Shown here piece by piece: positions 12,121-58,700 of a stretch of 64,000 bases of DNA (positions within the stretch are counted from its first letter, which is position 1; the number at the start of each line of letters is the position of its first letter). The DNA lies in the NCBI RefSeq assembly GCF_040938485.1, contig NW_027271164.1, forward strand, positions 2,144,064 through 2,208,063, written 5' to 3'. The notes under the pieces are model-generated. The model was not told where the DNA came from. It saw only the letters and a program-made list of their open reading frames with translations, and ran no database searches. The DNA comes from Diadema antillarum. Taxonomy: Eukaryota. The position numbers were made by a program, and so were the translations under genes.

Positions 12121-12167
12121 TTGAGAGGAACCGCGCTTATCTCGTTTTCCTAATCAAAAATCACTGA

Positions 12168-21645: not shown

Positions 21646-21828
21646 GTTGAGAAAGCGGAGGCAGTCCTGCTTCAAATCAAGCGAGCCTTGCTGAGCCCCG
21701 ACTCTGAGGACGCAGCGTCGATCGAAGCTCTGAGCAAGCAGTTTCACGAGTTAATTCCACACAGGAACGACGACACACATCAGCTTGACAGTATGAGAAA
21801 GGTTGCCGTCAAGCAAGACCTTTGTCAG
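21646..21828 (+). CDS. PARP4: PARP4-like exon D, helical domain (VEKAEAVLLQIKRALLS…LSKQFHELIPHRNDDTHQLDSMRKVAVKQDLCQ).
   Basis: EFYRLIPH-like motif (FHELIPH) and KKADLCQ-like motif. tctacag acceptor and CAG|GTATTA donor. Confidence 0.75.
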
Positions 21829-22364
21829 GTATTATGCGATGTGTTTACAAAGAACAGTTTAAACAACTCCTAAACGCATCTACTTTATCTCGAGATAGGC
21901 TCTTTGATTAAACCCTTATGTATCTCATGTATACTCTACCGACGACTTTTGAGGTATCCTTTGCTAAAAGTGTGTATGAGTTCTATCAAACAATGATATA
22001 TTTTGTTATACAATGAATGTCTGAGATGATTGTTAGCTGTTTACTCATAAGGCACAAAGCATAACAAATAAGAGATTGCGTTTGAGCTTATTTCAGTTTA
22101 TTTTTTTTACATACTAGTAGTTAGTATGAGTGTGCTTTAACAAATGAATGAAATCATTACATGTGAGCGATCATTGTTATGAAAACATCAGGCTATGATA
22201 TTCACGAATCTGAGCTCTTCAGCAATAAAGTCTATCCACTGCTTGCAGACAGTTTAGTCAATGTCTGTCACAAAACCACGAATGACTTGTGTTCCATATC
22301 TAAGCGATAGCCTAAATTGTCAGTGATAAAAACTCTTTCATACCGCAACCTATCTCGGCTTCAG

Positions 22365-23390: not shown

Positions 23391-23489
23391 TGGTATCCTA
23401 CTCCCGAAAATTGTGGTGGAGATGTTTGGAATCGAAAGATGGGACGCAGGGATGCTGGGAAGTGGAATTTACTTCGGAGATTCAACAAG
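23391..23489 (+). CDS. PARP4: PARP4-like exon G (GILLPKIVVEMFGIERWDAGMLGSGIYFGDST), carrying the catalytic Tyr.
   Basis: G.GIYF(A/S)D motif. ctttcag acceptor and AAG|GTAAGA donor. Confidence 0.8.
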
Positions 23490-29215: not shown

Positions 29216-30394
29216 AAGATGAATAAAATGAATATATTTGGATTTGGATTATATCGGAATATTGTTCTCCACACGCTCAGGCATGACGGTCGCCACCATC
29301 CTTCTCGAGTTACCTAGGGCGCACGCCTGAGAAGCCTGCGAAACGCACTTCGCCGGGTTGGTAAGACAGAACCGAGGGTGGCAACGTGGCCGTTTTGACT
29401 GAGCGAGGAAAACAATACAATTTTTATAATTAAAATGAAAATATGGTTGGAATAAAACAAATATGGATATTATGATAGAATTTGAATTTGTTAAGAAATA
29501 TTGATGATTAATCTATAGGGAAATATATATATTATATAGTCTGGCAAAAATAGTCAAAATTATGACTGATTGCCATTAAACCTAAAACAACAACGACAAC
29601 AACAGCAACCCATTGACACACCCAAGGAACAAACACACACACACACACACACCATCACAACCATCCACACCCACGCCCAGCAACCACACACCACACACCA
29701 CCACCACCACAATCTCGAACAAACCCAGAGGCAAAACACATTGTACAGTCCTCTCCAACACCATCATGCACCACCACCACCTCTACCACCACTATCACGA
29801 ACAACAGTACCAGAGACACGCAATATCTCACCTTTCATATACATTCACTTTACATTACTCTCCAGCTCAATGACGAGTTACATTGTTCAGTCTTCTCCAA
29901 CAGTTATTTGTTAACGATACAACAAAATCAACCTAGGATTGTTTATTACATGTTTTCATTTGTGACGGATATAGAACACATGATTATAGTCAGATTACCT
30001 TAATAAGGGGACGTTAAATCCGGGTGTTGAATCAGAATCTGGAATTCGCAACTCTTGAATTCTTAAGGAATATTCATATTCAGCACTCTCGAAATAGGAC
30101 AGAAATTGTTAATAATATGATAATAATTCATTTATATTATAATAGTATAATATAAACGAATTTACCTTCTTTTAGGGATGCTGAATCAGAATATGGAATT
30201 CGCAGCTCTTGAATTCTTAAGGATTTTGAGATATTCAAGATGGCAGTCCAAATCATCCATATTCGTTTTCAGCACTCTTGAAATAGGATAAAATCATTAT
30301 TTGGCGGATGGTAAAACATGGTTCAGCCCCTGACACCAAGGCTAAAAAGAATACAATTAGAAGAGTCATACATTACTGCATATTGAAATACAGC

Positions 30395-30580
30395 GAACGG
30401 TATAATATAAACGAACTTACAAAGAGAATAAGGGTAAAGAGAAGATGTAAATATTAATGAGGGCTCTTGCAGCCATAATATAAACGATTTTTTTTTAAAT
30501 ATAATATAAACGAACTTACAAAGAGAATAAGGGTAAAGAGAAGATGTAAATATTAATGAGGGCTCTTGCAGCCTTAACCG
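30395..30580. repeat. Tandem duplication of an ~80-bp unit (tataatataaacgaacttacaaagagaataagggtaaagagaagatgtaaatattaatgagggctcttgcagcc).
   Basis: Two near-identical copies, 30398-30473 and 30497-30577. Confidence 0.8.
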
Positions 30581-30716
30581 ACTGCTGACTGTTAATTCAA
30601 TATAGTGTGTGCGTGACAGTGACAGTAAATGGTGTATAATTCTTTGTTTATGGCGATATCTTATTACATTCTCTTAAATATATATATATACGTATTCTTT
30701 TTTTTTTTGTCACCAG

Positions 30717-30900
30717 TACCAGCGCCAAATACTCTACTGCGGGAGAGTTTACCGGTACGCGTTTTATGGCTGTCAGTAACGTGGCGCTTGGAAGAATTAA
30801 AGACGTTTACGAGAAGAGGCTAGACCTTGAGAGCGCCCCCATTGGTTTCGACAGTGTACATGGCGTCCGGAAATCCAAGGAGATCGAGTCGTTTTTTAAG
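30717..30900 (+). CDS. PARP4: PARP4-like exon H, catalytic (STSAKYSTAGEFTGTRFMAVSNVALGRIKDVYEKRLDLESAPIGFDSVHGVRKSKEIESFFK).
   Basis: Aligns to …LLICDVALGKCMDLHEKDFSLTEAPPGYDSVHGV. caccag acceptor and AAG|GTAAGA donor. Confidence 0.8.
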
Positions 30901-31190
30901 GTAAGACCAACTTTTATCTGGTATCAATTGTAAAGTTTCACATATCCCTCGGATACGACATGAAGTGGAAGTGCCAAGTATTAGAGTGTCAAACCGACGC
31001 GTGAAAAAAAAAATCCCGCTTTATCAATTGATCGTAAAGAGCACAGTGCATGACTCTATGAAGTGGTCCGCGACGTACATACAACTGGACCTAATGGAAG
31101 ACCAGCTATAGTGCAGCTGAATATGAGCTATCCAGCCATCTTAGCAGACTGAAAATGAAAAAAAAAAAACCAGACAAACAAACAAATAAG

Positions 31191-32571: not shown

Positions 32572-32861
32572 GTAAGTTTACCAGTAAAACTAACGAATTT
32601 CAATTATTTTTCGTGACTGTAACAATCGTATACGTGTTCACTGTGATCGTATGTACTTAGTGATTATGATAGCACACTGTTGCCTCCATCGACATTCTAT
32701 AAATTTGAACGAAGTCAGTAGATTATTTAGGTTTACGGTTCCAATATTCATCATAAAATATTTTTTAGGGTAATATGGTTATGAAAATTTAGTGGAATAA
32801 CATAATGTGCTCATTGTCAAGATGTGTTGTCCATGCTTCCATTGTTAATTCCTCACCACAG

Positions 32862-33080
32862 GTAACGGTCCTCCAGAAGTACGAGAACATCGGGAGAGAC
32901 TCGGCTGAGACGAGGTACGTCTTTCCGCTGGACGAATGCGCCGCTGTATGTGGATTTGAAGCATACATCAATGGTAAACACGTGGTGGGCGTGGTCAAAG
33001 AGAAGGAAGAGGCGAAGACGTCTTACCAGAAGGCGGTACGGGAAGGCCATGGAGCGTATCTCATGGAGGAGGAGGCATCG
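32862..33080 (+). CDS. PARP4: PARP4-like exon J2, VIT domain (VTVLQKYENIGRDSAETRYVFPLDECAAVCGFEAYINGKHVVGVVKEKEEAKTSYQKAVREGHGAYLMEEEAS).
   Basis: Near-identical to the vertebrate PARP4 VIT core (…AAVCGFEAFINGKHIVGEIKEKEEAQQEYLEAVTQGHGAYLM…). caccacag acceptor and TCG|GTAAGA donor. Confidence 0.85.
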
Positions 33081-33538
33081 GTAAGATAATACATTCGATT
33101 ATCTCATGGCATTTCGTCATGCATGGTAAACACGCTGACTGAAATAGAAGAACCGGCGATCCCATGTCTCTGGTCCAATTCACTAGTATTTTTAATTTTC
33201 CCAATGACCGTCACATACGGATTCTTTTTAAAAATAAATTCACATTGCTGTCCATCGCAAATATTAAGAGGAGACTTGGTTTTGGCTGGATCATGCATAC
33301 TCCGCGGATGTGGGGGTGGGGAGGGGAGGGGAGGGGAAGGGGGGGGGGGACTGAGGACCCAGCCACAGAAAGACTTACAAACCCAGTGTCCCTTTCCATG
33401 GTCACTCCTTCTTCACACGAGATCGACAGTTATAGCTGAACCTCCTTTTTATTGATGTATTATGCATCCTAAGCATATCGAAATTTCGATAATCGATATA
33501 CGCAGGATAAATTGTTTCCTCTTCTTGCTAAATGACAG

Positions 33539-33750
33539 AACATTTTCTCCATCACCGTTGGGAACCTTCCACCAGGGTCGAGTGTGATCGTTCGAATCAC
33601 CTATGTTACCGAGCTCGTGGTTGAAGGGGATCGGATCGCTTTCAATCTCCTCGGCAGCGTGGCGCCGTGGAAGAGGAATGAGATTTTGGCGGCAAAGTAT
33701 GACGAAAAAGGCCAATCGGTGACCGCCGTGCGCCAAAACGACCGTGACAG
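33539..33750 (+). CDS. PARP4: PARP4-like exon K, VIT domain (NIFSITVGNLPPGSSVIVRITYVTEL…SVAPWKRNEILAAKYDEKGQ…).
   Basis: Aligns to FTVSVGNLPPKAKVLIKITYITEL…ATVAPW. tgacag acceptor and CAG|GTATGT donor. Confidence 0.85.
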
Positions 33751-34010
33751 GTATGTGACGTCATAATCACTCGTGATTTTACGATGTTGGTTTACGGCGT
33801 TTCCCTTTACGACTTCACTGGTCATTATCTTATGAACTAACCGACGAGCTTTTTTTTTCCTTTGGAAAGTTGAGTTAAACTTGCATTTGTTTTTAAAAAG
33901 CCGCATTTTTTCGCAATTTAATCTTTGGTGGTGAAAATGTTAACCTAAGGTCTTTTTGGTGAACAAAAGAAAAAAAATGACAAAACATAAAGGTGTGATT
34001 TGCTTTACAG

Positions 34011-34927: not shown

Positions 34928-35403
34928 GTAAGAAAATAGCCGATTCATGGGATCTTCTCACTTGAGAATGACAGTATGGGTTATTCAACCGCATACCTCG
35001 CTAGTGTGTACGTTTTAGTGATTCTAGTTTGTAATTGATTTGAATGCAGTATAAATGTAAATTTTAGTTTCCTTTAGAGCTTCAGGTGGAGCCCGCAGGT
35101 GGAGAGGCACAATTTTGAATCTAGTTTCATATAAAATGGTCACGTCAGTTTATAACATAAACGTATGAAAGTTGTTTCTAGTGGAGGTGACGAAAATTTA
35201 GCTAGATAAACCATGTAGCTTTTCAAAAGAAAGTTTACAGATCTCTCTGATAATGTTGACATTTGTTACTTTCTTGTGAGGATATTTGCTCCTTTACGGA
35301 AGCATTGTTCCACACATTTTTTCTTGAAAAACCAAATCACATCGGGATAAAAGTAGCAGTGGGAATAAGTTCACAAGATATGTTGTTATTTTCAACCCAA
35401 CAG

Positions 35404-35590
35404 GCTTACATGGTGGTGTTTTACCCAGAATTCCAAGTGAGTGCAATCAAGAGCCCGGAAGTTGTCATTATGTTGGATCGCTCTACGTCAATGAAGGGAG
35501 AACCTATGAAAGACGCAAAGAAACTCGTTCACATGATCCTGGAAAATCTACCCCCGGGAAGTCGATACAACCTCATCGTCTTCGGAAATG
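35404..35590 (+). CDS. PARP4: PARP4-like exon N, start of the vWA domain (AYMVVFYPEF…VVIMLDRSTSMKGEPMKDAKKLVHMILENLPPGSRYNLIVFGN).
   Basis: MIDAS-like D.S.S motif (DRSTSM). Aligns to …VIICLDCSSSMEG. caacag acceptor and ATG|GTATTT donor. Confidence 0.85.
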
Positions 35591-35842
35591 GTATTTGACA
35601 TTCCCTAATTCCTGATCAAATTATTTGTTGTACCTTTTATTACGTTGTTGATGTAAAGCAATGGTACATTTAACGCAGTCTTCCTTGATAATGCAATGTG
35701 GATTAAATATTCAAACGAGTTCAATTTCATTCCAAAGAATTGTTTATTACAGATCTAAAAAAAAAAATGAATGAAAAAAATGTGATTAAAAGTGTGCATG
35801 GCTGAACGACACTTATCCTTCAACATATCCTCTGTGTCACAG

Positions 35843-36110
35843 ATTTCGAAGAGCTGTACCCCGCCAGCGTGGTTGCCAGTGACACAAATATCCGAAACAC
35901 GGAAACATACCTGAAATCAGTCAGCTGGGAACGTGGGGCCACTGAGGTGTGGCGCCCTCTACGGGCAATGGCTCTCTTGGCGTCGGATGATGCTCGTCTC
36001 ATCCGGAATGGATTTCTCATCTCCGATGGTCACGTGAGTAACGAGCAGGATACCCTAATCGAAGTGGCCACCAACCGACACATCAACCGCCTCTTTACCT
36101 TCGGTGTCAG
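35843..36110 (+). CDS. PARP4: PARP4-like exon O, vWA (DFEELYPASVVASDTNIRNTETYLKSVSWERGATEVWRPL…GFLISDGHVSNEQDTLIEVATNRHINRLFTFGV).
   Basis: Aligns to …NILLVSDGHLQDESLTLQLVKRSRPHTRLFACGIG. tcacag acceptor and CAG|GTAAAA donor. Confidence 0.85.
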
Positions 36111-37058
36111 GTAAAAGATATGGAATACGACTATATTTATGATACAGAGTGAACTAAATTGTGTTCAGGTCTACCGCGGCAACGTAATTGTACAGTGAAT
36201 CCAATTTTGCGTCGCTTACATCCATCACAAGCAAAAGGAAAGTTGCTTCTAGTCATGTAGCAAGAGAAATAAGTGCAGTGTACATTTTGTCTTTTCGCAA
36301 AAAGAAAGCAATGTCTATAACTGATTAAAAACAAGAACTCTCAACCAGTCCTGACAACAGACAGACTCTCATGATTTTAGAACATGGCGAAGGCTCTAGA
36401 CTCTGACGAATTTTTAAGAAGGTTGATATTGTGATCATTTCCATTGCAAGAATCTGATGCAGCTACATTGTACGCCTCAACTAATTTATTCAAGATGGAA
36501 TCTTTTTCGACTTTAATATTGTAACGGACCAATGCTAAACACTTTCTTGGATGAAACTCGAAAATTCTAAAACGGAGGTAAGCATTGGTTTTTTATCCTG
36601 AGAAATCAAAGCAACGACAAAAGGAATAAAGTTGATCTTTCCTTAATCAAGAATTTTACCCAAACATGTTTCTTGTATGTGTTAAGATGATTATAAGGAC
36701 AAGCTTAACAAGGCTGATTGATTTTGAGAGCATGTGAACCTTCTTGAGCTTATTATCGTTTCTGCTGTTTAATTATTTTTCCTCATTTCATTTCCTATTT
36801 CTCTCATTTTCATTATCATCATTATCATTATCATTATCATTATCATTATCATTATCATTATCATTATCATTATCTTTTTATATAGACCCAGACTTGCTAA
36901 TCATGAGTGCATAACATAAGGGGAGGGGTGATTATCCATCCGTGAAAGCATTTTTAGTGTTGTGTCATATTGACATGGCAAAGTATGTTTTTCTCACTTA
37001 AATATCAATTAGTTTGATTATTTTCTGTTGTCGGTCACACTAATACTTCACATTGCAG

Positions 37059-41896: not shown

Positions 41897-42056
41897 GCAT
41901 TCCTGGCAGTGGCTAACTTCTACCTTCACATCAAAGGCGAGGCGACCAAGGCTAAGGATGTTCTTGATGACATCCTCCAACGAGTCAAAACGTCAACATC
42001 CGCTGAGATTGATCGAAGGCTCCCTAACATGTCTAAGATGTTAGTATTCGAGTTCT
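41897..42056 (+). CDS. PARP4: Possible PARP4-like exon V (AFLAVANFYLHIKGEATKAKDVLDDILQRVKTSTSAEIDRRLPNMSKMLVFEF).
   Basis: tgtag acceptor and T|GTGAGA donor. Its phase (1) does not match the best acceptor of the following large exon, so membership is uncertain. Confidence 0.3.
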
Positions 42057-42583
42057 GTGAGAAGGGGTGAAGACGCATGCGCAATATTCAGTTGAGCAAT
42101 CTGCTGTAGCAGCTAAAATATCTGACAGCAAGCTTCCTTGAGAAGCCTTGTGTTATCTTTTCAAATGATTGTGTCGATAAAAGCAGATTGCGGTTGGAAA
42201 CTCCATAGAACATGTAGAATGTTTATGCAAACTACCGGTCTGCCCGTTCGTAAGTTGATTTATATCTATATAAAGAAACACTGCTCTTTATTATGCTCTC
42301 TTTTGTTCCTTACGCTGTCTCGTAGCCTCTGTAAGATGTACCAACACCGCAAAGCGTACGTTTCATACAGTTTGTTCGATTTCTGCGCATTGTGTATTTA
42401 GTAAAAAGGAGCAACTAAAGTACATCTAATTATTGGTGGCAGATTTTAGATTTGGTTGTAACATCAATTGATTTCGAAACCCCTTCCTAGCTCTTTTAAA
42501 AGTTTTATTCTGTTCGCTCTTCATCGCGATGAACTGGCATAATTATATTTTATTGTTGTTATTTTTGTTAATCCCTACCACAG

Positions 42584-44330
42584 CTGTCAATGTGTTATTG
42601 ATGAAGGATTCCAAGGGAGAGAGCGGCAGCTCAAACCACCGAGTGAATCACAAAAACACGATCGCATGGTTCGCATAGAATCTCGAGAAACACAGCAGCC
42701 CTGCGATGCTCCGATACCATCGGCTAAAGCCATGGACGCTACACAGACTCTAAAGACGGAGGAGCTAGTTTCCCCAACACTCCGAGATGTTGATATGGAT
42801 CAACTTGCAGATCAGCTGGAATTGTTGTCTCCGACGGAAGACACACAAAAATCATTTCTTGCACATGCAGAAGAGGCGTGTGCGCTCAAAGAATCACCTG
42901 TCGACGTCATGGAGCTTTCGGAGGAGGTTTACTCTGCCGATGAGCCTGAACCTGCCTACATGGTAGAATCTATTCAAGAAATTCAGCTAGTTGAAGATGT
43001 AATGTCTCCTGTCCTCTGCTTAGCTGAACCAGCTAGTAGGTCGTTGGCCTTTTCATATGAAACCGAAGCTGCATACCTTGAGCCCGTGGAAGAACTTCAG
43101 ATCTGTGAGGAGGTACAGGAAGTGTTGTCTCCTGTCCTGGAATCGAGCGTTGATTCGTTACCTTTGATGCTAGCAGAAGTTGAGTCTGTCACAGAGCTGA
43201 GGAAAGAAGTGGCAGAACCTATGAGATTGGAGCAACGCATGGAGAAAAGGTTAGAGTTGGCAGAACCTGTATTAATGGCGAAAAAGTTAGAGTTGACAGA
43301 ACCTGTAATGCTTCAAGAACGAATGGAGACACGGGCAAAAATGGCAGAACCTGTTATGATGGCGAAAAAGTTAGAGTTGGCAGAACCTGTGATGCTGGAG
43401 GAGAAATTGGCGTTCGCAGAACCTGTGATGCTGGAAAAGCATGTAGAAGAAAAGTTAGAGTTGGCAGAACCTGTAATGCTTCAAGAAAGAATTGAGACAC
43501 CGTTAAAGATGGCAGAACCTGTAATGATGGCGAAAAAGTTAAAGTTGGCAGAACCTGTAATGCTGGAAGCTCGAATGGAGACACGAGTGAAAATGGCAGA
43601 ACCTGTAATGATGGTACAACACATGGAGGAAAAAATGGCGTTGGCAGAACCTGTGATGATGGAGCAACATATTGAGGAAAGTTTAGAGTTGGCAGAACCT
43701 GTAATGATGGAGGAAAAGTTGGCGTTGGCAGAACCTGTAATGCTTCAAGAACGAATGGAGACACGGGTAAAAATGGCAGAACCTGTAATGATGGTACAAC
43801 ACATGGAGGAAAAATTGGCGTTGGCAGAACCTGTGATGATGGAGCAACATATTGAGGAAAGTTTAGAGTTGGCAGAACCTGTAATGATGGAGGAAAAGTT
43901 GGCGTTGGCAGAACCTGTAATGCTTCAAGAACGAATGGAGACAAGGGTAAAAATGGCAGAACCTGTGTTGATGGCGAAAAAGTTAGAGTTGGCAGAACCT
44001 GCGATGCTGGAAGAACGAATGGAGACAAGATTAAAGATGGCAGAACCTGTAATGATGGTACAACGCATGGATGAAAAAACGGCGTTGGCACAACCTGTTA
44101 TGATGGAGGAAAAGTTAGAGTTGGCAGAACCTGTGATGATGAAGGCACATATAGAGGAAAGATTAGAGTTGGTAGAAGCTCCCGAGTTGGATCAAGTACT
44201 TGATGCTACCCCAGCTTTGGAAGCCGATGACATCCTGCCAAAACAACAGAAGCTCGCTCCAGCAAAGGAAGATCTCGAAAAGACAGAGGCCTTCGACATA
44301 ATCACAAGAATTTTGCAAGTAGGGCATCAG
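42584..44330 (+). CDS. PARP4: PARP4-like giant exon W. Acidic N-terminal part, then about 30 tandem 12-aa repeats of the form (K/E)(L/M)(E/A)LAEPVM(M/L)(E/Q)E(K/R), then …ILQVGHQ.
   Basis: Continuous ORF (42666-44396) with ccacag acceptor and CAG|GTAAGG donor at 44330. The 36-bp DNA repeat has a 180-bp higher-order period. Confidence 0.6.
43230..44160. repeat. Coding minisatellite: 36-bp unit (gcagaacctgtaatgatgg…), about 25-30 copies. The 180-bp higher-order units are near-identical (for example 43560-43740 versus 43740-43920).
   Basis: Read directly. It produces the long artefactual antisense ORF 43354-44091. Confidence 0.85.
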
Positions 44331-44735
44331 GTAAGGAGCAAGAGCAGTGGGAAAAAAAATCGATTTCAAATTGCAGAGTATGTGCACCCATCTTAAGTCA
44401 TTAACATTGGAACAAACAGAAGCAGAGCTAGAAATTCCTTCATGAATTGTATCTTCCTAACAAGAATCAGTTCACGGAGTAACCGTCATACTTTACTCTT
44501 TGTACCACCGAAACAATAACCATGTAACCATCGTATTCAGTACCATGGCTCACTTAGTGCAACTCTGGCTCCCATGATCATTCATGAGCTGTACCATCAC
44601 GTCTGCTTCGAACAGCAAATGCTCTCTAAATATTTCATGACTGCAGAAGTTTTTCATTTACCGCATATAGACAGTGCACATAATATTGAATGAAAATACG
44701 AATCCAAACTTGATTATCCTGTACCATTCATGCAG

Positions 44736-44919
44736 AAGAACGTGACTTTATATATAACTTTCACCACGTCCCGTCACTATTATCAGGACGAGCAGTCCCG
44801 CTGGTGTTGGGAGGTCGCTGACATCGAAGGAGAATTCGGCATCGACTGCAGCAAAGTAACCGATGCACTTCAGCAGCCTGACCAATACCTGGACATGGAT
44901 GACACGCTGCTTGAAACTT
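44736..44919 (+). CDS. PARP4: PARP4-like exon X (KNVTLYITFTTSRHYYQDEQSRWCWEVADIEGEFGIDCSKVTDALQQPDQYLDMDDTLLET).
   Basis: Resembles …IQHWQDAVPWTELL… of the PARP4 C-terminal region. The acceptor at 44735 or the alternative at about 44784 are both in frame. T|GTAAGT donor. Confidence 0.5.
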
Positions 44920-45066
44920 GTAAGTTTCTCTTCCCGCTTCTTCCCCTGTTAACTTATCAAATTCAACTGGGTCCGAGTGTCAGAGAGAGAGAGAAATTAT
45001 GGACAAGTCGTTACAAATCAGCGAGTAGTGAAAGAGGATCATATGAAAAATACAAACACACACACA

Positions 45067-45105
<39 letters not shown>

Positions 45106-45573
45106 CACCACAAATCATACACTTCATTGAAGACTGCTGGGCACTTTCAGCTTGAATATAGTGTTTATGGTATAGACTCTAGACCCAATAGCTAAAATAG
45201 ACGTAAGATATAAGACGTTGTTCAAATGCACTTATCAGGTCATAACTTGAAAACGTCTTTTTGTGTGTGTACGGGAGAATGTGGTCTTCCAAATGTTGAA
45301 AGCGACACCCTCCAATAAAACTGATTCACATTAGACTATGAAAGAATTTTGCCCTTAGTCTCGCTACTGATCTACTTTACATTGCTTGGATGATTCGGCA
45401 GTCAACAGGTGACAAACAAAATGTACCATGATGTGCTTCCATCCTGTTTCATTGATAGAGCAAGAAAGTCATTTTGCCATAAGTCTGACAAGCGACTTGG
45501 GCAACCTTAGCAGCAAAGGGTGACCAACTGTTAACTCCAAGTTTGACTCTCTGTTGTCTTCGTCCTGCTATAG

Positions 45574-45836
45574 GGATGTCAAGCCTCGGCCTCATCAAGA
45601 GGATTGTTGCAACTCTCCTTGTCACCGGCCTGCTCTCATGCCTGGAATCGACACTCCACTCAACCGACATCGACGTCGACAAGGTTCGTTTGTCGTGGGA
45701 GAAGACTTACCAACCGCCGTCTGAGTTATGTACCCTGGCTGTGAAGTGTGGTCTGGACGTAACCTGGAAGGACGCCCTCACCGTATTTCAATTGGAGAAC
45801 GCCCTAGATGACATCATCAATATAGTTTCAAGTTAG
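45574..45836 (+). CDS. PARP4: PARP4-like terminal exon (WMSSLGLIKRIVATLLVTGLLSCLESTLHSTDIDV…LENALDDIINIVSS, then stop), an MVP-binding-like C-terminus.
   Basis: Aligns to …GRECLLDLIATMLVLQFIRTRLEKEG… of the vertebrate vPARP C-terminus. ctatag acceptor completes the phase-1 codon. TAG stop at 45834-45836. Confidence 0.65.
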
Positions 45837-48800
45837 GCCTTTAATTTGGAAAAAACAGGCTTCCTTGTAGAAGGCCGATATTCTTTTTTTTTTTCTTACG
45901 AAGAATGTCTTGAGATAAATAATTCTATGAAGTCAATGTTTTACATTCAGCTTTATTGTAACTAACTGTAGGAAGAGGTAGTGTAGTAAATATAATGCCA
46001 CAAGTTGTAACTATAAAGTAATTGTTGTGACTATAAAGTAATTGTTGCAATTTTGCTGAGTTCAGCTTTTTCCCATATATAATGAAAGATGTATATTGAT
46101 GGATTGACATTGCTACTGCTGCTAAAACAAAAATATGCATTGACATGATTCTGAGAATCTTCAGTTCAGCCTAATATGATTTGTTTGGTTCTCACAACTC
46201 TGACATACAGACCCCAAACATTTAAGTGCCTAGATTTATTACGTCGAGAGAGCCAGATAAAGCCTATTCAAGGTAGTGATGTAGCAGAGGCAGTATGAAC
46301 TAAATGACGTCATTTACTTGCATTCATGATGTCACATAGAGATCTAGGGATAGCATTGTTGAATCTTTGTCTGTTTTAGTATTGAAATCGTGCAACCGCT
46401 AAGCAGCTTCAGGATCCAGTGTTGCGCTGCTGAATGCAACAAAATATGTGACGTTTACACTTCGAGAGATTTTATCATAAAGAAGAATCGTCGAGTAATG
46501 TAAAGAAGGTGGCAACGTCTCGTACTCGCATCCACATTCCAAAGGAAACATGATTCCTGCATTTATCACTTATCGATGATTATCTCATTGATAGGAATGT
46601 CCTTGACCTTATAAATGACATTAAAAAACATTTAACACATGTCAATGATTACGTATATTTAGTTACTTTTCTACCCGGATTTTCTTACCTTTAAACCGTT
46701 ACATTATACTGATATTGAATAATGGTGAATTCTGAATTGGCTGGCCTGACAGTTTAGAATTCAACGGAACTAAGAAACAGTGAATGGATTATCAATGAAT
46801 TCCTTGATTCCAGAAACAATGTTAACTTTAAATTAACTTTAAGCTGAATTACTATGGCCCGAAATTGACTGGCTACTTGTACAGTAAAGAACCAAAAGAA
46901 TATGACAATTTGCGTATATTGTGAGGGCTGGCGAAAGAAGAAAAAAAAATGTGTACAGTGTATAAGATACTTATTTCATTACGACCTGAATGACACTTTG
47001 ATGATTTAGAATATATACTTTAATTTTGCTTAACTGAACATATTTTGCATAACAGCCACATCTTTATAATATAAAAATATAAATATGATATAATACATCA
47101 ATTTATAAAGCGCAAAACCTATAGCCATAATTCTTCTGCGCTGAAAGCGCATCATTAGCAAGATTTGGATTTTGCAATTCCGTAGAGACGATTAAAAATG
47201 ATTTAAAGAGTTTGAAGCTAATAGAGAAGTGCAAGCGCGCCCGAACACTTCTGTCTTTTTTTTTCTCTCTTTTTTATTATTATTATTATTATTTTTTTTT
47301 TTTGGGGGGGGGGGTGGCAAAATCTCGACAGGGGCACATTTATGTGACGATGTGAGATCCTCAGTGAGGGAGCGAAGCGACCGAGCCTGGGAGGGTGTGG
47401 AAGGGGATACCCCCCCTCCCACGGTAGGGACTTTTTGTAAAAACAGAGTACAAAAGTCGCGTTAATAGAGCATTTTGAATTAAATTTCTAGGGAATAAAA
47501 CATAATAAAAGAAATCACTGCAAAGGCATGGAAGGACTATAATCATAACTTAGGAAAACTATTCATTTTACTATAAGTACGGGCAGAGCGAGCGAGTCAC
47601 TTTCACTTTGCCATTCGTCTGAAATGCGTTCATTAAAAGCTTAAACGTGATCGCATTGTTCGAGCAATAAAAAAAATATTCTTATTCTGCTAGAAAGCAG
47701 AGAAGAAAAGGAAAAATGCAAGGATTACTAAAGGTATGTTTCAGCGGGCACACTCGAGGATACGAGGCTACCATGTATACACTAAATTCACTCATAAGGT
47801 AATATTAGTGTATACACATATGTAATAATGTATATTGTTAGTGTAGTGTAATTTTTTTTTTCGTTTTGCCCCCTCAACATTTTATTTGGAGGGGGGGGGG
47901 GGCAAGTCCCCCCCCCCCCCCTTTCCGGCGCCCTTGGAGAAGTGTGCCTCTGGATACTACCATTGGTCATACGTTCGTTAATGGTGATTGAAAAAAATAA
48001 ATGTCAATTCAATTTCTCATCGACGTCACCTGTGAAGAAGATAATGAGGAGTATGATTTTGCTGTCTGTGATAAGGTGATAAGATGAAGATGATTACAGT
48101 CAGTCCTCTGAACACTGTGGTAGAATGAACGAGAGTCTTGACTCTTGAACAGGTTCAAATTGGTCATCGTAGGAATATCCATCTTGGCCCAGAGTTTCGA
48201 AAACAGGTACTATGCAATGTTCGCAGAGTGATAAAAACAAACCCTTCAGGCAGAATTCTACAAGTAGCACGAAAGACGCTACTTAGTGGGTCAGACCATG
48301 TTTTTCATAATGATATCATTTGTTGTGACGAGGATAGCGGAGACGAAGGTGATATCATGATCGATGTGCGGTTTTTAGAGTGGACAGTGTGGCTTTCTGT
48401 GCCAATCGGAAAAGCGCGCAAAGGGTTAAAATCAACAGATGCCATTTTCCCCTTGGCCACTGTACCCACACTGATCTTTTAGATCTATAAATCTTCGACG
48501 GAGACCACGTTGTCTACGAATTGTATTGTGGAGTGGAAGTCACTAAATACGGCGTATCTAATAGTGATACAGGTATCCAAATATGAAATTTTGCGTGCAT
48601 TGAATAAGTGTGCTTGTGCGTGTATGTGTGGGGGCTTATTACTCTCTTTTTGCGTTTAGAATGGCGGCGGTGACATAGGCCCTAACCGGTATGTGTGTGT
48701 GTGTGTGGGGGGGGGGGGGGTGCATGTGTGTATGTGTGTGCGTGTGTGAGTGTGTTGTGATTATGTAACTGCACTTTTTAATGTATCAACAATGAATGGT

Positions 48801-49841
48801 GTAGGTAATCTCCCTTAACCACTGTCTCTATATCAAAATACCATTGGCGACTAATAAATCACCTGCACTTTTCTCGACGGCTACCATAATTGTTATCTTG
48901 TCATTATCTCCGAGTGTTGTTCTCTAAAATGTTGCATTATATCAAATATTATGAACACTTATGTGTAATCAAAATACGATTTAATCCCGTGCATGTATGT
49001 TATCATAGGCGTACATGATTTCCACTTATTAAGGATAGTTATTATTATACATGTTATAATATGTCATTACCTTCTTAAAATTTGTTGTTGTACTATTAGC
49101 TTAACCCATAATATTCTGATAGGGATATCAATCACTAAATGAAGTGTTGAGACTAGAGTTTGCGTTGCCTCATCTAGACTGGTTTTTTTTTTTTTTTGTT
49201 GCAATATTTGTTTGACCTCGTAGTAGTTCCTATCCTGTTAAAGAATACTGTATTGTGTAAATGAGTATAATGATGTTGGTATTCTAAACTGTCATCTAAT
49301 ACCTAGAGCGTCTGTTTGCTGGCAGTGGCTTGGTCGAACTTGCGAGTGATAAACTGCCGTGATTTATTTCTTTGGTAGGATTCCAAATTTGACTTTCCGA
49401 GATAGCAACTATCGTAATTGGGTATGGAGATTCGACCAGGAGAGAACACTCAAGCTGTGCAAACTTGGCCCGCTGCGGCCGGTATATGAACGACTGTCGG
49501 AGGTGTGACATCTAGCGGCTGGGCGAGAGAAACGGGAAAACGTCCAAATACCGAGAACTCACGAGGCGCGCCAAATGAAAATGAGGGTGTCTGCTAGCTG
49601 GAGATCTTAGGTTCAAAACAAGGCTTTATTATCACGCCGCAATAAACCAGTACTCTGTCTTTGACACTATTGATAATTTGCACCATATTGGCATAAATTT
49701 CGCACGAAGGAAAGTGTCTAGAGAAAGCACTTTCCGGTTTCAACGTTTTATGTTACTGACCTCAATACCACACAAGTCAAAATTAAACAAGAAATCATAA
49801 TATAGAAGTACGACACAAAGACAATTTGTATCTCATTACCA

Positions 49842-49871
<30 letters not shown>

Positions 49872-49881
<10 letters not shown>

Positions 49882-50032
49882 AGTAGAAACAGTTGTATAA
49901 ACACAGCAGGATAAAATAAATACTTATTTATATAGTATACTTATCTAAACGCTTTGATAAAGGTCTTTGACCGAAACGTCAGTCCAATTTTTTGGCTCCT
50001 GCGGTGTTTATACGACTGTTTCTACTCTTCAT
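49872..50032. mobile_element. Small MITE with 25-bp TIRs (agagtagaaacagttgtataaacac … gtgtttatacgactgtttctactct), inserted within an (AT)n microsatellite.
   Basis: Inverted termini read directly. Flanked by (AT)n on the left and an atgactatat minisatellite on the right. Confidence 0.55.
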
Positions 50033-51279
50033 ATTTTGATGACTGTATATATATATATATGACTATATATGACTATATATATATATGACTATATATGACT
50101 ATATATATATATGACTATATGACTACATATATACATAGATAAAGATAAAGGTTTCCCTCTTTTGATCCTTAATAGTTCCAAAACTATATATCAAAGGACA
50201 CAAATATTGATATGAGCAATACCACCTTAATAGTCTACAATTTTTTTTTTGGATGAAATGTAAAAATGAAAGCATAATTTAGTTTCCTTATTCAAGATTT
50301 ATTTTGAAGTTAGGGTTCAGATTTTGCTTTATTTTCAACCCTCTGTACAAAACTTTAATTTTGCACAGGGGTCAATTGGTGTGTATGGGAGTGTGTGGTT
50401 TACACCCAGACAATGGTCCTGAACAATGGCCAGCCGGGTTTGAATGTTCTATTACATATTCATGAGAAATTCCATTATCACAGCTAATCTGTATTCATCC
50501 TAAAATGTAGTGTATGCAAGCACATGAAAAACATTATGTGCTTAATCTTTTCTTGTCAATGCATTTTACCCTTTACCATGAATTCAGACTAACAGTGCCC
50601 AGTGTCCTGCGTAAAGTTCAATTTTGTACCGAGAGTTCAAATTTGATGAAAACCTTAAACATAACTTTAGAATTAATCATGGATTTAATGAAACTGATTC
50701 ATGCTTTCATTATCCAAATCACCTCCAACTAAGCTGTACTCTGTTCACACTTTTCAGCTTGTACTCATATCAATGACAGTGTTATCTGATGTATAGTTTT
50801 TGCACCAAAAGTGGGAAATGTTTTTTTGTAACACCAATACCTGTACACATACATGCACGATTAACCCAAGTGTAGCATACCGTGGTATTTGAAAATCTCT
50901 CTTTAAAAAAAGGGTGAGAAAAAGATACACTGTAATACATTTGAAATTCTCTCTTTTATAATACGGAGTGAAAGACATTATACCGCGTATACAACACACA
51001 CAAAGTCGCAATCACTCTTTGGGGAAATTATGAGAAGGAAACATCTATACAATCTGAAATAGCTTGAATAAATGAACAGTGGCTTTCGTTCTCTACCCTC
51101 CTCAAAATATTATATAACCACGAAGGACTGAAGAAAGCGTTAATGCATTTTGAAGTAATGTGCGCGTTTTGGCGCCACTCTTGCGTAGAGCAGGCATATT
51201 AGATAGTGTAGAATATCAGATAATGTATGTACACAAAAGAGTCCTCGACCACCATGATTGTCGCCTGATGAACTCCCCC

Positions 51280-51560
51280 CCCCCCTTCCCTCTTCCCCGT
51301 CTTCTCGTCACTAGCTGGTGAATCACATCACTGTCTTCCCGCCTTCACTTCCTGGCCCTCATTGAAGACTGGACGCCTGACTTGGCACGAAGCTAACACG
51401 TTGGGATGATGCACCTGCCGTAGCTCACTCCTACCATTGATCGACTCGTCCGCCGATATGTAGCGATCTACGGCAGCTTGCTTCATGTCGGGCGAGGGTG
51501 CGGCCAGAGGGGACCGTGTGGGCGAAGCTAATCAGAAGGCTGTTGACGACTACGGCCAGC
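51280..51560. other. CpG-rich island (unusually dense CG for this window), function unknown. The minus strand has a 52-codon ORF MKQAAVDRYISADESINGRSELRQVHHPNVLASCQVRRPVFNEGQEVKAGRQ.
   Basis: Many CG dinucleotides (cgcc, cgga, cgtc, gcgg…) in about 280 bp, against a CpG-poor background. Confidence 0.3.
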
Positions 51561-52837
51561 GTTACTCTTATTTTTCATTATTTTTCCCCATTCCGTCAAG
51601 GGGATCTCATTTGGGTCATATTTGGTCTAGTATGATTAAGTTTCCTTTTCAGTCGTGACTGTCCTCTGCCTGTACACTCGTTCGCAGAGCTTCCTATGCG
51701 ATACTTCTAGCATCACCCTTAAAGATTTCTGATTTTCCCGTCTTCCAAATTTTCATGAGCAATGATAGATGGAAACACATGGAAAACGATGAGAAAAAAA
51801 TATTGTTGTTTCACTAAAAATGTTGACACTTATTTCTTAATCTTAATTTTTTTTTTAAAACAAAGCTATACATCTAAGGCACACATACACACACACACAT
51901 TATACGTGATGTTACAAATCTATATTTAAGCATATCATATACAGTAGTATAATACTTGTACACTAATGTATTTTCTATATAGATCTAACACGTTTAATGT
52001 ACTCTTCCAGTGGATTGATTAAAGGAATCAATTTCGCATGTTATAAAGTCATGATATTACATCGTGATTGCTAGTGATTTCTCGATTTTTAAGAGGGTAT
52101 TCTGTAAGCTTACATGTTGGATGCGCATTTAAGGAGACCGCATATGACAAACAAGATGAAGGGTAATAATTTACTTCCAAACTAATACTGGTGATATCCC
52201 TACCAAAAACATGATAACAAAACAGATCAGTATTGAAGGAAGTGAAAGATGTGTAGCGGATGCTCCTCTAGTCCCGTTCTCCTCTCGCTCCTTGTCGCTA
52301 TTATAAAGCATGTTATGAGTTCTTGGGACCCTTTTTTTCTTGGTACGTAAAACATAAGTTGTTACTATCGATATCATTACCGCAGCTGTCATTATATTAT
52401 CACTTGTTTGAGATGTGGTATTATAATTCTTCACCGCGTTTTCCTCTAACAGTATTAACTTTTATATTCTTTGACGTACAGTTTAAAAACACATCTTTAC
52501 TGTCATAATTATCTGAATCAGTACAACCGCTATTTTAAGCACACATTGTGTATACGTAGGAAGTTCAAAGTTTGAAACTGTTCTTTTTTACATCTTAAAT
52601 ATCAGGTCGATGAACTTGAACCACAGGCAACACTCTTTGACATTTTCTCTATCAATATTGTGAGAGTGAATAACAAAGGGGAAAAATGTTATAAGTGATA
52701 TTACTATCGCGATGTCGTTATAGACAATAGGAAGAGAGTTGCTCCAGAATGGAATCCGAAGTGAACTCTGCAAAAGATTTGAGTTGGCACCTTTCAAAAT
52801 CTGTTTATAAGTCGGTATATGATCATATACTATGACA

Positions 52838-52888
<51 letters not shown>

Positions 52889-54468
52889 TTAATACATACA
52901 TAAATCAAACAAAGATTACAAAATGGATGGATTGCCCATTTCAGATCCATTTTCACAATGAAGTGAATTGTGTGAACTATAATTTACCATAAAACTTGAT
53001 CAAGTCATAAGAGATAAATTTAGGGTAGTCAATCGCAATGTGCTTGAGCTGATACTTTAATTTATTGCTACACTAATTCCTGTCAAAATGTCAGTCTGTG
53101 AATGCCCCCTATTGATGCATGTAAACTGGGCGAGCAGAGAGCCATTATATGCTTAATCCATACCATGTTTCTTGATACCAGTTATTTTTTTCGAATCTGT
53201 GATGGGAAAGGCCTAGATAATGATTAAGATATTTAAACAATTAGCATGCCCCAAATCCGAAGGTAATTTCGGCACCTCATCAGAATTGAGAGGTGAATGG
53301 TAACAGTCATTTGGATTTCATGAACCAGTGATGTCACCTTTAAAAAATGTCATTCCACAAGGTGTTTTAAAAGCTCAACTTGCACCAGTACATAGATAGA
53401 TGTTGTAAAAGGGTGACAGTCAAACATGTTGTGAAGCTCCTTAGAATCAGTCTAGCCCGTATGGGATTAATTGTCTTAACCTTTGAGGAACAATTTAAAT
53501 AGCCATAAATTTCAAACTGAGATGGCAACAATCATCGTTATGTCTGGTTATATTTTTTTATGAGTTTAAATACAAGGGATATAAAGAAATCATAACTGAA
53601 TTTACCACTGAAAATGAAAAAAAAAAACTCCTTCAAGCCAGCCCACCAAGGCGGACCCTAATCCTTCAAAATGTCACGTAAGATAACTGACCTAGTTTCT
53701 TCTTATCGGGATCATGATGTTCTGTAATTTGTACTCACGACTTAAAGTTGTCAGGCTTAATCAAGACAATGAATCAGTAATTACCGGGGTTTAGAATGAG
53801 ATATATATTTGAAATAAAGAAAACGTTCTAGTGTTCCATTTTGAACATATTCATCAACATTGAGTCGTTGTGGTAACAATATACAAATTAATTGTTAGCT
53901 GAGTTTATATTCTCGGTGTTTGACACATTGAGTGATAGTTTTAGTTTTGATTTGTACACATGTGCTTCATTTTCATTTTTACGCTGACGACAATGATGAT
54001 TATGTCCTAAGAGGTTAGAGGCTTAGGGTTGGGGGTAGGGTGGAAATCCAGGAATCTTCTACATTTATGTTGACGTATTTATTTCAGTTTTTGAAATCAA
54101 TGTATGAATATATTTATAAATGAAGTCATGGGTTGGATGATTATATTGGAATAGTATAGTGTTTTTTTATGTTTTGAAGTTTGATAAGGATTATGGAGTT
54201 AAGGGATGGGGATCAGGGGTTGAGTGATACTTTTTTAATGATTGTTAAATGTTTCTTAGGGGCAACATGTGTGGGTTCACATGCCTACGGGCAATAGTAA
54301 ATGTATTTACTTTTGTATGCCCTGACCCTCATGTAGTCTCCATTCATTTCATTTTCACATTATGTAACGTGTACAGTACAGTGTATCTTTTGTAATGTTC
54401 ATTCTGGTTTTTGTTTCATGTTTGTGATGTTAATGATATGTATCCTATAGTTACCTGGTCGAATAAAC

Positions 54469-54499
<31 letters not shown>

Positions 54500-54949
54500 T
54501 CGCCATGTGAGCATTCTAAAAAACGAAAAAAAAACAAAAACAAAAACAAAAACAAAAAACCAGATGATGGTTGTGTTTCTATTGTTTCAATATTTACAAG
54601 AAGATGGTTACATTGACTTTTTATGACTTTCGGAATGGATGAAAATACTCTTTGGCGCTAGAAAAGTTTACAAAGAAGATACAACTACAGTCAGTTTTCA
54701 TAAGGTCATCCGTAAGTTTTTATCTTAGGTTTAATTCTTTGATGACTAGCAATTATTATATGACTAGTGAACCGAAAAGTTCAGGCTAAACCAGAATACA
54801 AAAGTCTTCAATTAAGTCCTAAAGTACCATCGAGAAAACAATAGATGTGTGCATTTTCCCAAATGTAAAGCCTTTTGTCTTAAGAACGCCACAAGCTTTA
54901 CTCAACCGCACAGACTTTTGTTGTAAATTATTTCTTCCTTTTTGTACAG

Positions 54950-54956
54950 TGATTGG
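54950..54956 (+). promoter_or_regulatory. Inverted CCAAT box (gattggc) about 190 bp upstream of the TATA box at 55138. A second attgg lies at 55022.
   Basis: Sequence gtgattggctgg. Confidence 0.3.
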
Positions 54957-55137
54957 CTGGTGATATTACAGATAATACAATCCCACATTTAGTCCCCTCC
55001 CACCCAGTTCACGCAGCGCGCATTGGTCCCGTTGCAACTACAAGTGAGCGAATCTTGCCACAGTCATCACTCCGTTCTGATATTTTTTTTTCACGAATAT
55101 GTTAGCATCTAAGTCAGATAGCACCAGCGGAGCCAGC

Positions 55138-55145
55138 TGCTATAT
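55138..55145 (+). promoter_or_regulatory. TATA box (ctgcTATATAAGccgag) for the decarboxylase-like gene.
   Basis: Consensus TATATAAG. A non-coding exon with a CA|GTAAGT donor (exon end about 55483) follows downstream. Confidence 0.55.
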
Positions 55146-55169
55146 AAGCCGAGCTCCACTCGACCAGCT

Positions 55170-55483
55170 CGTCTGTCTTTTGCCTAGCGAGGGTACAGAC
55201 AGGGGGTTCTAAGCAGCGGTCGAGACCACCACAGATTAGCATCAACTCGTGACGACAGGAGCGGGACAAGCGACAGGTCTTCAACACACTATAGCCGGTG
55301 GTGCTAAGAAATCCCTATTCTGTTTGTTTAGTTCTCATTGCAACACGAAACTTCGCGCTTAATTCGAATATTTTTAAGAATGCACGTAATGCGATAACAT
55401 CAAATATATTCACGCATACTGGAAGATCATCTAGACAACTGATAGAGAGCACTGACAGCTAAAAAGTAGCTAATGAGTCCTCA
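55170..55483 (+). other. Putative non-coding first exon (5' UTR) of the decarboxylase-like gene.
   Basis: It lies between the TATA box (TSS expected about 25-30 nt downstream) and a strong donor tca|gtaagtaagt at 55484. No long ORF in any frame. Confidence 0.4.
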
Positions 55484-55739
55484 GTAAGTAAGTTACGGCA
55501 TAGTTAGATCTTTATCGCGAACATTCTCCGCAACTTATTTCATCTGTACATTTCCAGCTGAAAAGGTGCATAAGGAAATGTCACCGATAGGAGTCTTTTC
55601 TTTCTAGGTCCTCTTAAAGACTCGCTCACTCAAAGAGGATATCATTCAACCTCAAGATAAGGACAGAGACAAAATTGAGAAGAAAGACAACGTTTTTGTT
55701 TTCTCATGTAACTCTCGGAGATCGACACAGCGCTCGACC

Positions 55740-55767
55740 ATGGACGCTGAGGAATATCGAAAGCGAG
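55740..55767 (+). CDS. Start of a group-II PLP-dependent amino-acid decarboxylase-like CDS (MDAEEYRKRG) within exon 2 (exon from about 55608).
   Basis: Strong Kozak context (gaccATGG). M-D/N-x-E-E-F/Y-R-x-R-G is the conserved N-terminus of DDC/HDC/TDC (for example MNASEFRRRG, MEPEEYRERG). GAG|GTGAGT donor at 55768. tttctag acceptor at 55607. Confidence 0.45.
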
Positions 55768-58700
55768 GTGAGTTGCAATTCTGAATGGTCTCTACTTATC
55801 TACTTTCAGAAACAATGAAAGCTTTAACATTTCATCTGGTCTGCGGATCGCCAGCGGCATTATCATGTTTTTATCCTACTTGCATTCTGTCAAATTGTCT
55901 GTGCATTTCTCTCAGAATATCATATCGGTGTAAATGCATTTTCGATTCCTCTCTCCTTTTTTTTTTTGCAAGGCTGTTGAATGCAATGAACAGTTGTTGT
56001 TGTTATATAATTCATCTGCATTTGAAGTTAATCATTAATCACATTTGTTTGTTACACCTACTTTCGATTTGCGACATATGTTCGCAATGGTTTGATAGTA
56101 CAACAATGCGGGTCTGTGAGATACAAAAGAACTGACGAAGTGTATAACTGATAAGAATTGATATTCTCTCTACAAGTTGGAAGGGCGTATTTTCAAGCAC
56201 TTCAAGTGAGTGTTAATTATGATGTATATTATAAACTATTCACACTTAATGAACATATTAAACATGTAACACTGAGTGAAAGCATGGCAGGAGTTATTGG
56301 TGCCCTTAAGTCTTCAATTTGAAGGAAACACTGTGCTCCACTGGATTTTTTTTCAGAATGAAATTTAGGATCTAGTGTTTCTTACGTCTGGACACGTGGC
56401 TGGAAAATGAGAGTAGATGCTCTAAGGGACAATCCAGCAAACCATAGGGCGTGAAGCCAAGGTAGCCGCTCATGCCTGATAAAACAAATGTCGTTGGGAG
56501 GCGGGTATGAAGGGTGATCAATACCAATGAAAAGACCGTCAGCCAGCCAGCCATGTTAATGCTTCATACTCATATATCGTATCCCTACCACTCGGGGATT
56601 GCGAGAGCTGTTTGACACCCTCTCTTCTTGTAGCAAACTGTGGCTGTATGTGTAGAAATAAGATGACACAATTGCAGTTGAATAACTTGGGAAGCATGGT
56701 TTACATTTACGGTTTGTGTCATGCTACGGCCTCCTTATCTTTTTTGTTCCACAGGAAACTGATCATGAGCATCTCGTACTTCGAACTCTCGAACTAAGAT
56801 ATATCACTTCGAAATGTCCTCGTTTAGGCAAATCATAGTGCCAACAAATATTGGTATGTTGTGTTTTGAGAAATTTCACACTCATGTAAGTCATGACAAA
56901 ACTTTCAATAGATCTTAAGAGATTTTAACGCACAATTATACACACCGAAGTTTTTATCACGTATTCTCTATAGCACATGAGTTATTTATTCTCCCAGAAA
57001 TATGATCATGTGACTGTCCTCATGTCGAAGTGTGATGGAATTCAAATTGTGCTCACACAAGGAAAACTATTCGATAGCTTAACCAATCCATTTCTCAAAA
57101 AGAATGGAATTGATCAATAGCCATCACCACATTTTATAAGACAAAGGCCATTATCAATAAACAGGTAATTATTCTATAGGAGATTAAGTTCCGGTATAGT
57201 ATAGATGAAGATCTAAATGGATCAAAATAGCAGGAGCACAGGATATGATTAATGCTTCGGATATGACCATGCACTTAAACGTTAAGTGGTTTAAGTGTCT
57301 GAAGGGCAACGTACAATAACCGAGAGTTATGAAGTTTATAATTGAGCACCACAACAACAACAACGAAAAAAGCAGAGCAGTGAAATTTAGAAAAAAAAAT
57401 CGGAAGGGTTGTGGTAATCTGAATATCATGAGTGAGCTAATGTAGCGTCGAACATTACATTTTAAATGAGTCATTGTAGTGAACAGCCATTTTGTTAAAT
57501 GACACCCCTAATACACTTCTTGTAAAAACAGTCTTTCTTTACCTTATTCAATTTTTATCACATTTTTATATTACATAGTAATTGCAAGCCTTGTAACTTC
57601 AATGATTTTTTTCTCTCATAGACATTGATTATCATCTACGGATCTTATCTGTGATATCATCAGATAGACAGCATTTGCAATCATGAAAAAAAACAAACAA
57701 TGTAAGCACGAATAAACCTCCTTAATGTTAAGAAGATGTGTATGGATATTTTGACTATTGAATAGAAAAATAGGAAGGGAGGAATATATAAGATTATGCA
57801 CCTGTTTCCGGTACCCCTGCTACTGCCTTCTCATAATATCAAAATATGTTCAATGACTGCTGTTCTACCATAGATCGATATGTGTGTATCATATGACATT
57901 CTTTCTTTCTTTTCTTTCTTTTCACTCCCTCTCTCTACCTCCTATATTATTTCCTAGTTTGATACATTTAAGCGAACACTAAATGACACTAGATGTTATA
58001 AATCGCACAATTTCATAATCAAATGGCGCCAAGGGCGTTGTGTATGAATGAACGATACCTGCATTCTGTGCGCGATTTATACATGTTTAATTGCCTTTGA
58101 ATGAACAATACCTAACTCATATACCAGTGTGTGTGTGTTGTATGTATGTGTGTGTGCGTGTGTGTGTGTGTATTTGTGTATTTTAATTTGAGGATGTTAC
58201 ATTGCATGCAGGCCTGAAGATTACATGCTCTATGGATACGCCAGAATATATGCTGCCAAATATGAAAATTGCCACAAATCAGCTTTAATCTGCGATCCTA
58301 AATCCATTCGGACGCGGTATGACTAATTTATGCTGAACGTCAGTCTGACGAGCTTAAATCCTTGGTTGACGGTAATCTGTGTTAGGTTATAGGTCTCTCC
58401 CCCCCCCCCCCCCCCCCGTCGCAAAACGTGTAATAAGGGATATTTATAATTGCACTTAAATCAAGTATGTATGAGTGTTTCCAAAAATGAAATCGGAAGT
58501 CACAGTGCATATCCAAACACTGATTAAGATACGAGTAGCATCATCCGTGATAGGACGTGGTATCGGCCTGAGGATATATCCATCTAATATTAAGGAACAC
58601 AGATACAGCTCACAATATTTGCGATTAAATATAAATAAGCATATTGAGAAACAAATTGTGTACGTTGTATTCTCGACACCGCGGTTTCAGTTGCTTCATG

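Follow-up and report, generated by a model that had tools for sequence, protein, structure and literature searches.

In-frame coding minisatellites and tandem-repeat linkers form a general class in eukaryotic proteins, and the exchangeable apolipoproteins carry proline-punctuated amphipathic helical repeats of 11 and 22 residues. The closest described counterpart of the locus reported here lies in vertebrate PARP4 (vault PARP). In the human protein, the C-terminal all-helical MVP-interaction domain (MVPID/MINT) spans residues 1562-1724, the stretch linking the ITIH-like region to this domain is intrinsically disordered (PMC10450202), and the vault cryo-EM structure resolves only the MINT domain of PARP4 (PMC12280208). 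Daugherty et al. (2014) described a disordered segment of about 360 aa encoded by the largest PARP4 exon, human exon 30, whose sequence and length are highly variable among vertebrates; the exon is under positive selection (dN/dS 1.75 for human versus rhesus), and the authors argue for its role as an interaction surface (PMC4038475). Among the components of the vault machinery, only this large disordered exon carries a strong evolutionary signal in vertebrates. Vaults of the sea urchin Strongylocentrotus purpuratus yield bands of about 200 kDa, and the genome of this species contains a VPARP homologue (PMC550661).

We analysed a stretch of 64,000 nucleotides from Diadema antillarum (hereafter the window) that carries a PARP4-like gene on the + strand. 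The exons were mapped by tblastn with XP_072174381.1 of the sea urchin Diadema setosum, a RefSeq automatic model of 1909 aa named 'protein mono-ADP-ribosyltransferase PARP4-like', which gave 27 exons over 18205-45833 and placed residues 1247-1778 at 42585-44330. The main features are listed below.

18205-42039, + strand: exons 1-24 of the PARP4-like gene, encoding the PARP1-homology region (WGR/HD/ART) and the ITIH-like region (VIT, vWA), placed by Pfam, the exon map and the human PARP4 alignment.
42584-44330, + strand: exon 25 of 27, by far the largest of the gene (1747 bp), made up of an acidic 5' segment, the array and a short 3' segment, placed by tblastn.
42585-43211, + strand: 5' part of exon 25, non-repetitive and acidic by composition (209 aa, net charge -32).
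43212-44171, + strand: AEPVM(M/L) repeat array, delimited by unit parse, TRF and core-motif scan.
43590-43966, + strand: four-unit block of 180 bp (16+16+16+12 aa) present in two copies through recent duplication, found by self-comparison at a 180-bp offset.
44787-44919, + strand: exon 26, which opens the C-terminal tail (DEQSRWCWEV...), placed by tblastn and splice sites.
45574-45836, + strand: exon 27, the last coding exon, with stop codon TAG at 45834-45836, placed by tblastn and splice/stop sites.

Pfam matches on the + strand appeared in the order PARP_reg (21604-21870), PARP (30640-30930), VIT (32793-33086 and 33536-33763) and VWA (35260-35595 and 35806-36111), with VIT at 3.9e-25. In the D. 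setosum protein, Pfam PARP matched at 8.3e-28, the catalytic region of human PARP4, as present in PDB chains, matched with E = 1.8e-71, and HMMER aligned residues 136-1141 in one piece to human PARP4 240-1215 (E = 8e-194); beyond residue 1141, nothing aligned with human PARP4. Judged by the Pfam order and the collinear human alignment, the gene is the PARP4 (vault PARP) orthologue, and the same evidence bears out the PARP4-like gene named in a preliminary description of this DNA. XP_072174381.1 contained no Pfam match to BRCT, and human PARP4 residues 1-239 were without an aligned counterpart. The urchin model begins about 135 aa ahead of the human-aligned region (residues 1-135; exons 1-3, 18205-20334). 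The urchin lineage may lack the N-terminal BRCT, or the model may have missed an exon further upstream.

The splice sites of exon 25 were canonical (acceptor AG 42582-42583, donor GT 44331-44332), as were the AG (44785-44786) and GT (44920-44921) of exon 26. An Ile codon is split at the exon 24/25 junction, with AT at 42038-42039 and C at 42584, and the codon phases of exon 25 join exons 24 and 26 exactly; exon 27 is also in phase. The + strand holds an open frame of 617 codons (42543-44393), which runs on through the 209 and 53 non-repetitive codons flanking the array, up to the canonical splice sites. The preliminary description had proposed an exon of 1.75 kb, now delimited as 1747 bp at 42584-44330, and an exonic, in-frame repeat located after the vWA/ITIH-like region, with which the 617-codon frame and the splice sites agree. 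The minus strand likewise carries an open frame of 247 codons, and nothing besides its openness speaks for it. (S/E)-P-V motifs are dispersed through the acidic 5' part of exon 25, which also has a single LAEP near 43020. A scan of this part for decayed units, using a PSSM of the repeat units, gave a borderline result (p ~0.05-0.08).

The C-terminal tail (44172-45836; the end of exon 25 together with exons 26-27) comprises the last 184 aa, and a stretch of approximately 150 aa formed by the end of exon 25 and exons 26-27 is predicted to be helical. Its exons 26-27 showed about 91% amino acid identity between the two urchins, with a pN/pS of 0.32. The tail had been described as MVP-binding, a designation that none of the comparisons bore out. 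The 184-aa tail had no Pfam match, and a search of the PDB sequence set did not match human PARP4; a fish PARP4 tail matches there at 4.4e-14. BLASTP and hhalign comparisons of the urchin tail with the fish PARP4 tail were not significant (hhalign probability 0.05%); hhalign paired the W-containing EQSRWCWEVAD with fish EATEGYWELTA at the expected place, again without significance. Single-sequence AF2 modelled the D. setosum tail as all helices in an unreliable prediction (pLDDT 45.6), and Foldseek of this low-confidence model against the PDB returned no match. Across Pfam, PDB sequences and a word-indexed protein search, relatives of the tail outside the two urchins were not detected. As for the position of the array, which had been given as between the vWA region and an MVP-binding tail in the manner of the vertebrate linker, its placement after the vWA/ITIH-like region stands, and an MVP-binding nature of what follows is putative.

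The array spans 960 bp and encodes 320 aa. Parsed on the AEP anchor, it resolved into 22 consecutive in-frame units, every one of which starts with A-E-P-V-M-(M/L); 14 of the 22 units are 16 aa long (48 bp) and eight are 12 aa long (36 bp). TRF reported overlapping periods of 36, 48, 84, 96, 132 and 180 bp across 43210-44156, which agrees with the tandem repeat previously placed at 43230-44160, and the AEP-anchor parse replaces the earlier count of about 30 units of 12 aa. The core GCAGAACCTGTNATG occurred 20 times at no more than one mismatch, all within 43296-44138, against an expectation of 0.06. The peptide contained 21.6% E, 15.3% M, 13.1% L, 10.9% A and 7.2% P, matching the Met/Glu-rich character first noted, and it has a net charge of -28 and 11 MM pairs. 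Over the 41 units of both Diadema species, the A-E-P core was almost invariant while the remainder of the unit varied. Synonymous changes were found within the core (GTA/GTG/GTT/GTC, GCT, CCA).

Self-comparison of the array showed that 43590-43786 and 43770-43966 differ by 2 mismatches in 197 bp (99% identical), located at 43635/43815 (Met/Leu) and 43764/43944 (synonymous Arg). An older copy of the four-unit block lies upstream at 60-90% identity, and in the rest of the array the identity at a 180-bp offset was just 0.2-0.6. Because the 180-bp identity is confined to 43590-43966, we read it as a single recent four-unit duplication and not as an array-wide period. A higher-order period of 60 aa (180 bp) had been proposed; what remains of it is this one duplication, since identity elsewhere in the array falls to the values just given. 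The register suggested for it, 43560-43740 against 43740-43920, left 7 mismatches in 180 bp and gives way to the better register above. No 180-bp period was found in the D. setosum array. In the unit-level alignment between the species, the duplication corresponds to units 13-16, of which units 13-15 are unpaired and unit 16 pairs weakly (0.78) with D. setosum.

Relatives of the array were sought exhaustively with HMMER, the exon peptide being compared with 1.84 billion cluster representatives. A single match was strong, XP_072174381.1 (E = 1.6e-247); the remaining matches were weak, unrelated low-complexity repeats. As far as this search reaches, the array is lineage-specific, as the preliminary description had it, with the D. 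setosum orthologue as the sole relative found. The array is already present in the automatic RefSeq model of this sister species, which translates the orthologous array. Word-indexed protein searches gave no match for the repeat exon or for the 184-aa tail. With a conserved-exon composite as query, the matches listed by this method were all at most 830 aa long and the 1909-aa orthologue was absent among them, so the negatives of this method carry little weight. In a protein of the snail Physella acuta (XP_059151665.1, residues 1139-1371), we observed a Met-rich 12-aa tandem repeat, MLADPKAMESRY, with 15.9% Met; it resembles the urchin array weakly (E = 3e-6) and is probably convergent low complexity.

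Over 37.6 kb, the D. setosum locus (OZ188199.1) and the window shared about 85% identity, and in the coding flanks 95%, with a pS of about 0.11-0.16; the 5' part of exon 25 showed 95.4% nucleotide identity and a pN/pS of 0.24. Translation of the matching genomic exon in D. setosum gave 19 collinear units over 807 bp, nine of 16 aa, nine of 12 aa and one of 17 aa (48, 36 and 51 bp). All length differences between the two arrays (960 versus 807 bp) were multiples of 3. The unit-level alignment was collinear, with the first unit and the last five pairing across species at 83-96% nucleotide identity, and a few single units were gained or lost outside the duplication. A comparison of orthologous exons from related species had been proposed, and the 19 against 22 collinear units obtained from it show that copy number is labile between species. 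Since the units align collinearly and D. setosum lacks the 180-bp period, the comparison establishes that most units predate the split between the two species and that one block is recent, as far as unit order and identity can date them. The recent expansion initially suggested therefore applies to the four-unit duplication and not to the array as a whole.

The individual unit types have behaved differently. The B-type units of D. setosum (n = 4, AEPVMLEERMETRVKM) were 94-100% identical to one another and on average 88% identical to the B units of the window. Of the six B units in the window, four non-adjacent ones share a CTT-CAA (Leu-Gln) variant that D. setosum lacks. Other units found their best match across species (W5-D3 97%, W2-D5 97%, W10-D17 98%). 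Read from these identities, concerted evolution is partial, with some unit types homogenised within each species. Homogenisation by unequal exchange, as proposed earlier, is accordingly upheld for some types such as B and not for those that match best across species. Since the split, whole units have been added to the array or dropped from it, each time in a multiple of 3 bp. The D. antillarum lineage has also acquired one recent four-unit duplication, and some unit types have been homogenised within each of the two species; unequal exchange or gene conversion are the likely mechanisms. In these respects the array resembles other coding minisatellites, which have unit lengths in multiples of 3, copy numbers that differ between related species, and partial concerted evolution alongside recent block duplication. 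It differs from them in that the AEPVM unit family has no detectable relatives, the nearest look-alikes, such as the P. acuta 12-mer, being unrelated. The array is otherwise an ordinary coding minisatellite in a linker and no new kind of element.

For the array, single-sequence AF2 gave long helices of low confidence without tertiary packing (pLDDT 51, pTM 0.15), which is no evidence for a compact fold. The mean helical hydrophobic moment was 0.223, compared with 0.272 +/- 0.020 for shuffled sequences. An amphipathic helix, which the preliminary description had read from the peptide, was rejected because the moment lies below that of the shuffles. The array shares with the exchangeable apolipoproteins short helix-prone units with a proline at the start and a richness in E, K, L and M. 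It differs from them in having no amphipathic periodicity and in its units of 12 and 16 aa instead of 11 and 22, and no sequence similarity was found.

We favour the reading that the array is a translated, in-frame peptide repeat in the linker of urchin PARP4, where it probably acts as part of an acidic tether, and three other explanations were weighed against it. Under one of them, the repeat would be a minisatellite outside the coding sequence, removed by splicing or open by mere chance, or the 180-bp duplication would be an assembly artefact. Repeats may hold several frames open, as the 247-codon frame on the minus strand illustrates. Because the units fall into subfamilies, constraint was assessed within subfamilies and between orthologous units; differences from a single consensus were distributed 52/29/48 over codon positions 1/2/3, a weak third-position excess. 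Paralogous window units compared within subtypes, as non-independent pairs, gave a pN/pS of 0.34 in frame; the two shifted + frames gave 1.84 and 1.63. Orthologous unit pairs (n = 14, likewise non-independent) gave a pS of 0.229, a pN of 0.066 and a pN/pS of 0.29 between the species, compared with 0.24 and 0.47 in the exon 25 flanks and 0.20 in the rest of the gene. A dN/dS-type comparison among units had been recommended at the outset, and these paralogue and orthologue ratios supply it. The constraint is thus specific to one frame, the indels are all multiples of 3, and the frame stays open through the 209 and 53 non-repetitive codons to canonical splice sites, with the conserved exons joined in phase. 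The array also occurs in the independent assembly of D. setosum, and the 180-bp copies differ at 2 sites and so are no verbatim assembler stutter. These results make a non-coding or artefactual origin very improbable. They demonstrate, at the level of sequence comparison, that the array is coding and that its peptide is under purifying selection. An equally improbable explanation makes the array a module, rich in Met, for redox buffering or metal binding. Its Met content of 15.3% and its 11 MM pairs point that way. The 320 aa contain 0 MxM, 0 MxxM, 0 Cys and 6 His, counts on which Mets-motif metal binding of the Ctr1/CopC type was rejected and which lend no support to the metal-binding module suggested in the preliminary description. 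No Pfam family matched, and the cited PARP4 and vault literature draws no link to metal handling.

Our preferred reading, the tether, takes its cue from position: the array lies in the gene's largest exon, equivalent to human exon 30, and is therefore read as part of a connection between head and tail. By position and composition, the array would belong to a long acidic, helix-prone and proline-punctuated tether without a compact fold. This tether would join the catalytic/ITIH-like head to whatever anchors the C-terminal tail, which by analogy with vertebrates would be the inner vault wall, and how far the head reaches would then depend on the number of units. The urchin segment and vertebrate exon 30 belong to the same gene family, lie after the vWA/ITIHL region and before a C-terminal helical tail, are each encoded by the exon that is the largest in its gene, and both lack conservation beyond a narrow lineage and vary in length. 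They differ in that the urchin segment is built of a tandem 12/16-aa repeat that turns over by unit gain, loss and conversion under purifying selection (pN/pS ~0.3), whereas vertebrate exon 30 is described as disordered, with dN/dS above 1 (1.75), and the cited papers report no tandem-repeat structure for it (PMC4038475, PMC10450202). The vertebrate segment had been characterised earlier as a non-repetitive Pro/Ser-rich linker; it is better described as an exon for more than 300 disordered residues that evolves fast and differs in length (PMC4038475). The positionally equivalent urchin exon is thus also lineage-specific and length-variable, yet through repeat turnover under purifying selection.

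The constraint on the array is as strong as that on the folded domains, which exceeds what a pure length spacer would need and hints at a sequence-specific role, and the near-invariant A-E-P core suggests that sequence counts, not length alone. A rather unlikely alternative to the tether builds on these points: the array may be a multivalent docking platform in which 22 copies of (L/M)-A-E-P-V-M-(M/L) recruit a partner, a cargo or a pathogen factor to PARP4 or the vault. Such a platform would be the urchin analogue of the specificity interface proposed for vertebrate exon 30 (PMC4038475). It is favoured by the near-invariance of the A-E-P core over 41 units while the rest varies and synonymous changes occur inside the core, and by a pN/pS of ~0.3, as low as in folded domains. 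However, no known motif or partner corresponds to the core and a homologous repeat was found nowhere else, homogenisation of repeats could equally produce an invariant core, and vertebrate exon 30 has a dN/dS above 1, the opposite of the urchin array. The narrower proposal that the array is a multivalent A-E-P-V-M display, and not a passive spacer, and that it captures one particular cargo or a factor from a pathogen within the vault, is more doubtful still. If it were true, urchins and vertebrates would have independently built a recognition surface in the same PARP4 exon, one lineage varying it by repeat turnover and the other by point substitution under positive selection. For the tether and the docking platform alike, the 19 versus 22 units of the two species offer a natural series in length and valency for asking whether the linker only tethers the head or binds something.

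Several observations concern the surroundings of the exon. The introns at 29570-30000 (+ strand) and at about 45090-45130 contain His/Thr/Pro-rich low-complexity open frames with (CA)n microsatellites, seemingly ordinary simple sequence. Downstream of the PARP4-like stop, long blocks within 46430-56545 are 84-89% identical to D. setosum, and the open frames at 48129-48479 within them had no Pfam match. The 7.2-kb intron that separates the PARP4-like exons 23392-23487 and 30694-30900 contains an open frame of 580 codons (27101-28840, + strand) with Pfam matches of RNase H and RT-like type; the surrounding 3.4 kb (27254-30704) are without a counterpart in the D. setosum locus and appear to be a lineage-specific retroelement insertion. 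On the 5' side of the PARP4-like gene, carboxylesterase-type exons lie on the minus strand at about 5300-10900. This esterase gene is flanked by two segments of about 1.2 kb each (559-1777 and 11938-13127), both of which match positions 1475-2633 of the OZ188199.1 locus at 76-77% and represent a dispersed or duplicated element. The COesterase neighbour is also present in the D. setosum locus OZ188199.1 (1-1650, minus strand), and gene order is therefore kept between the two species.
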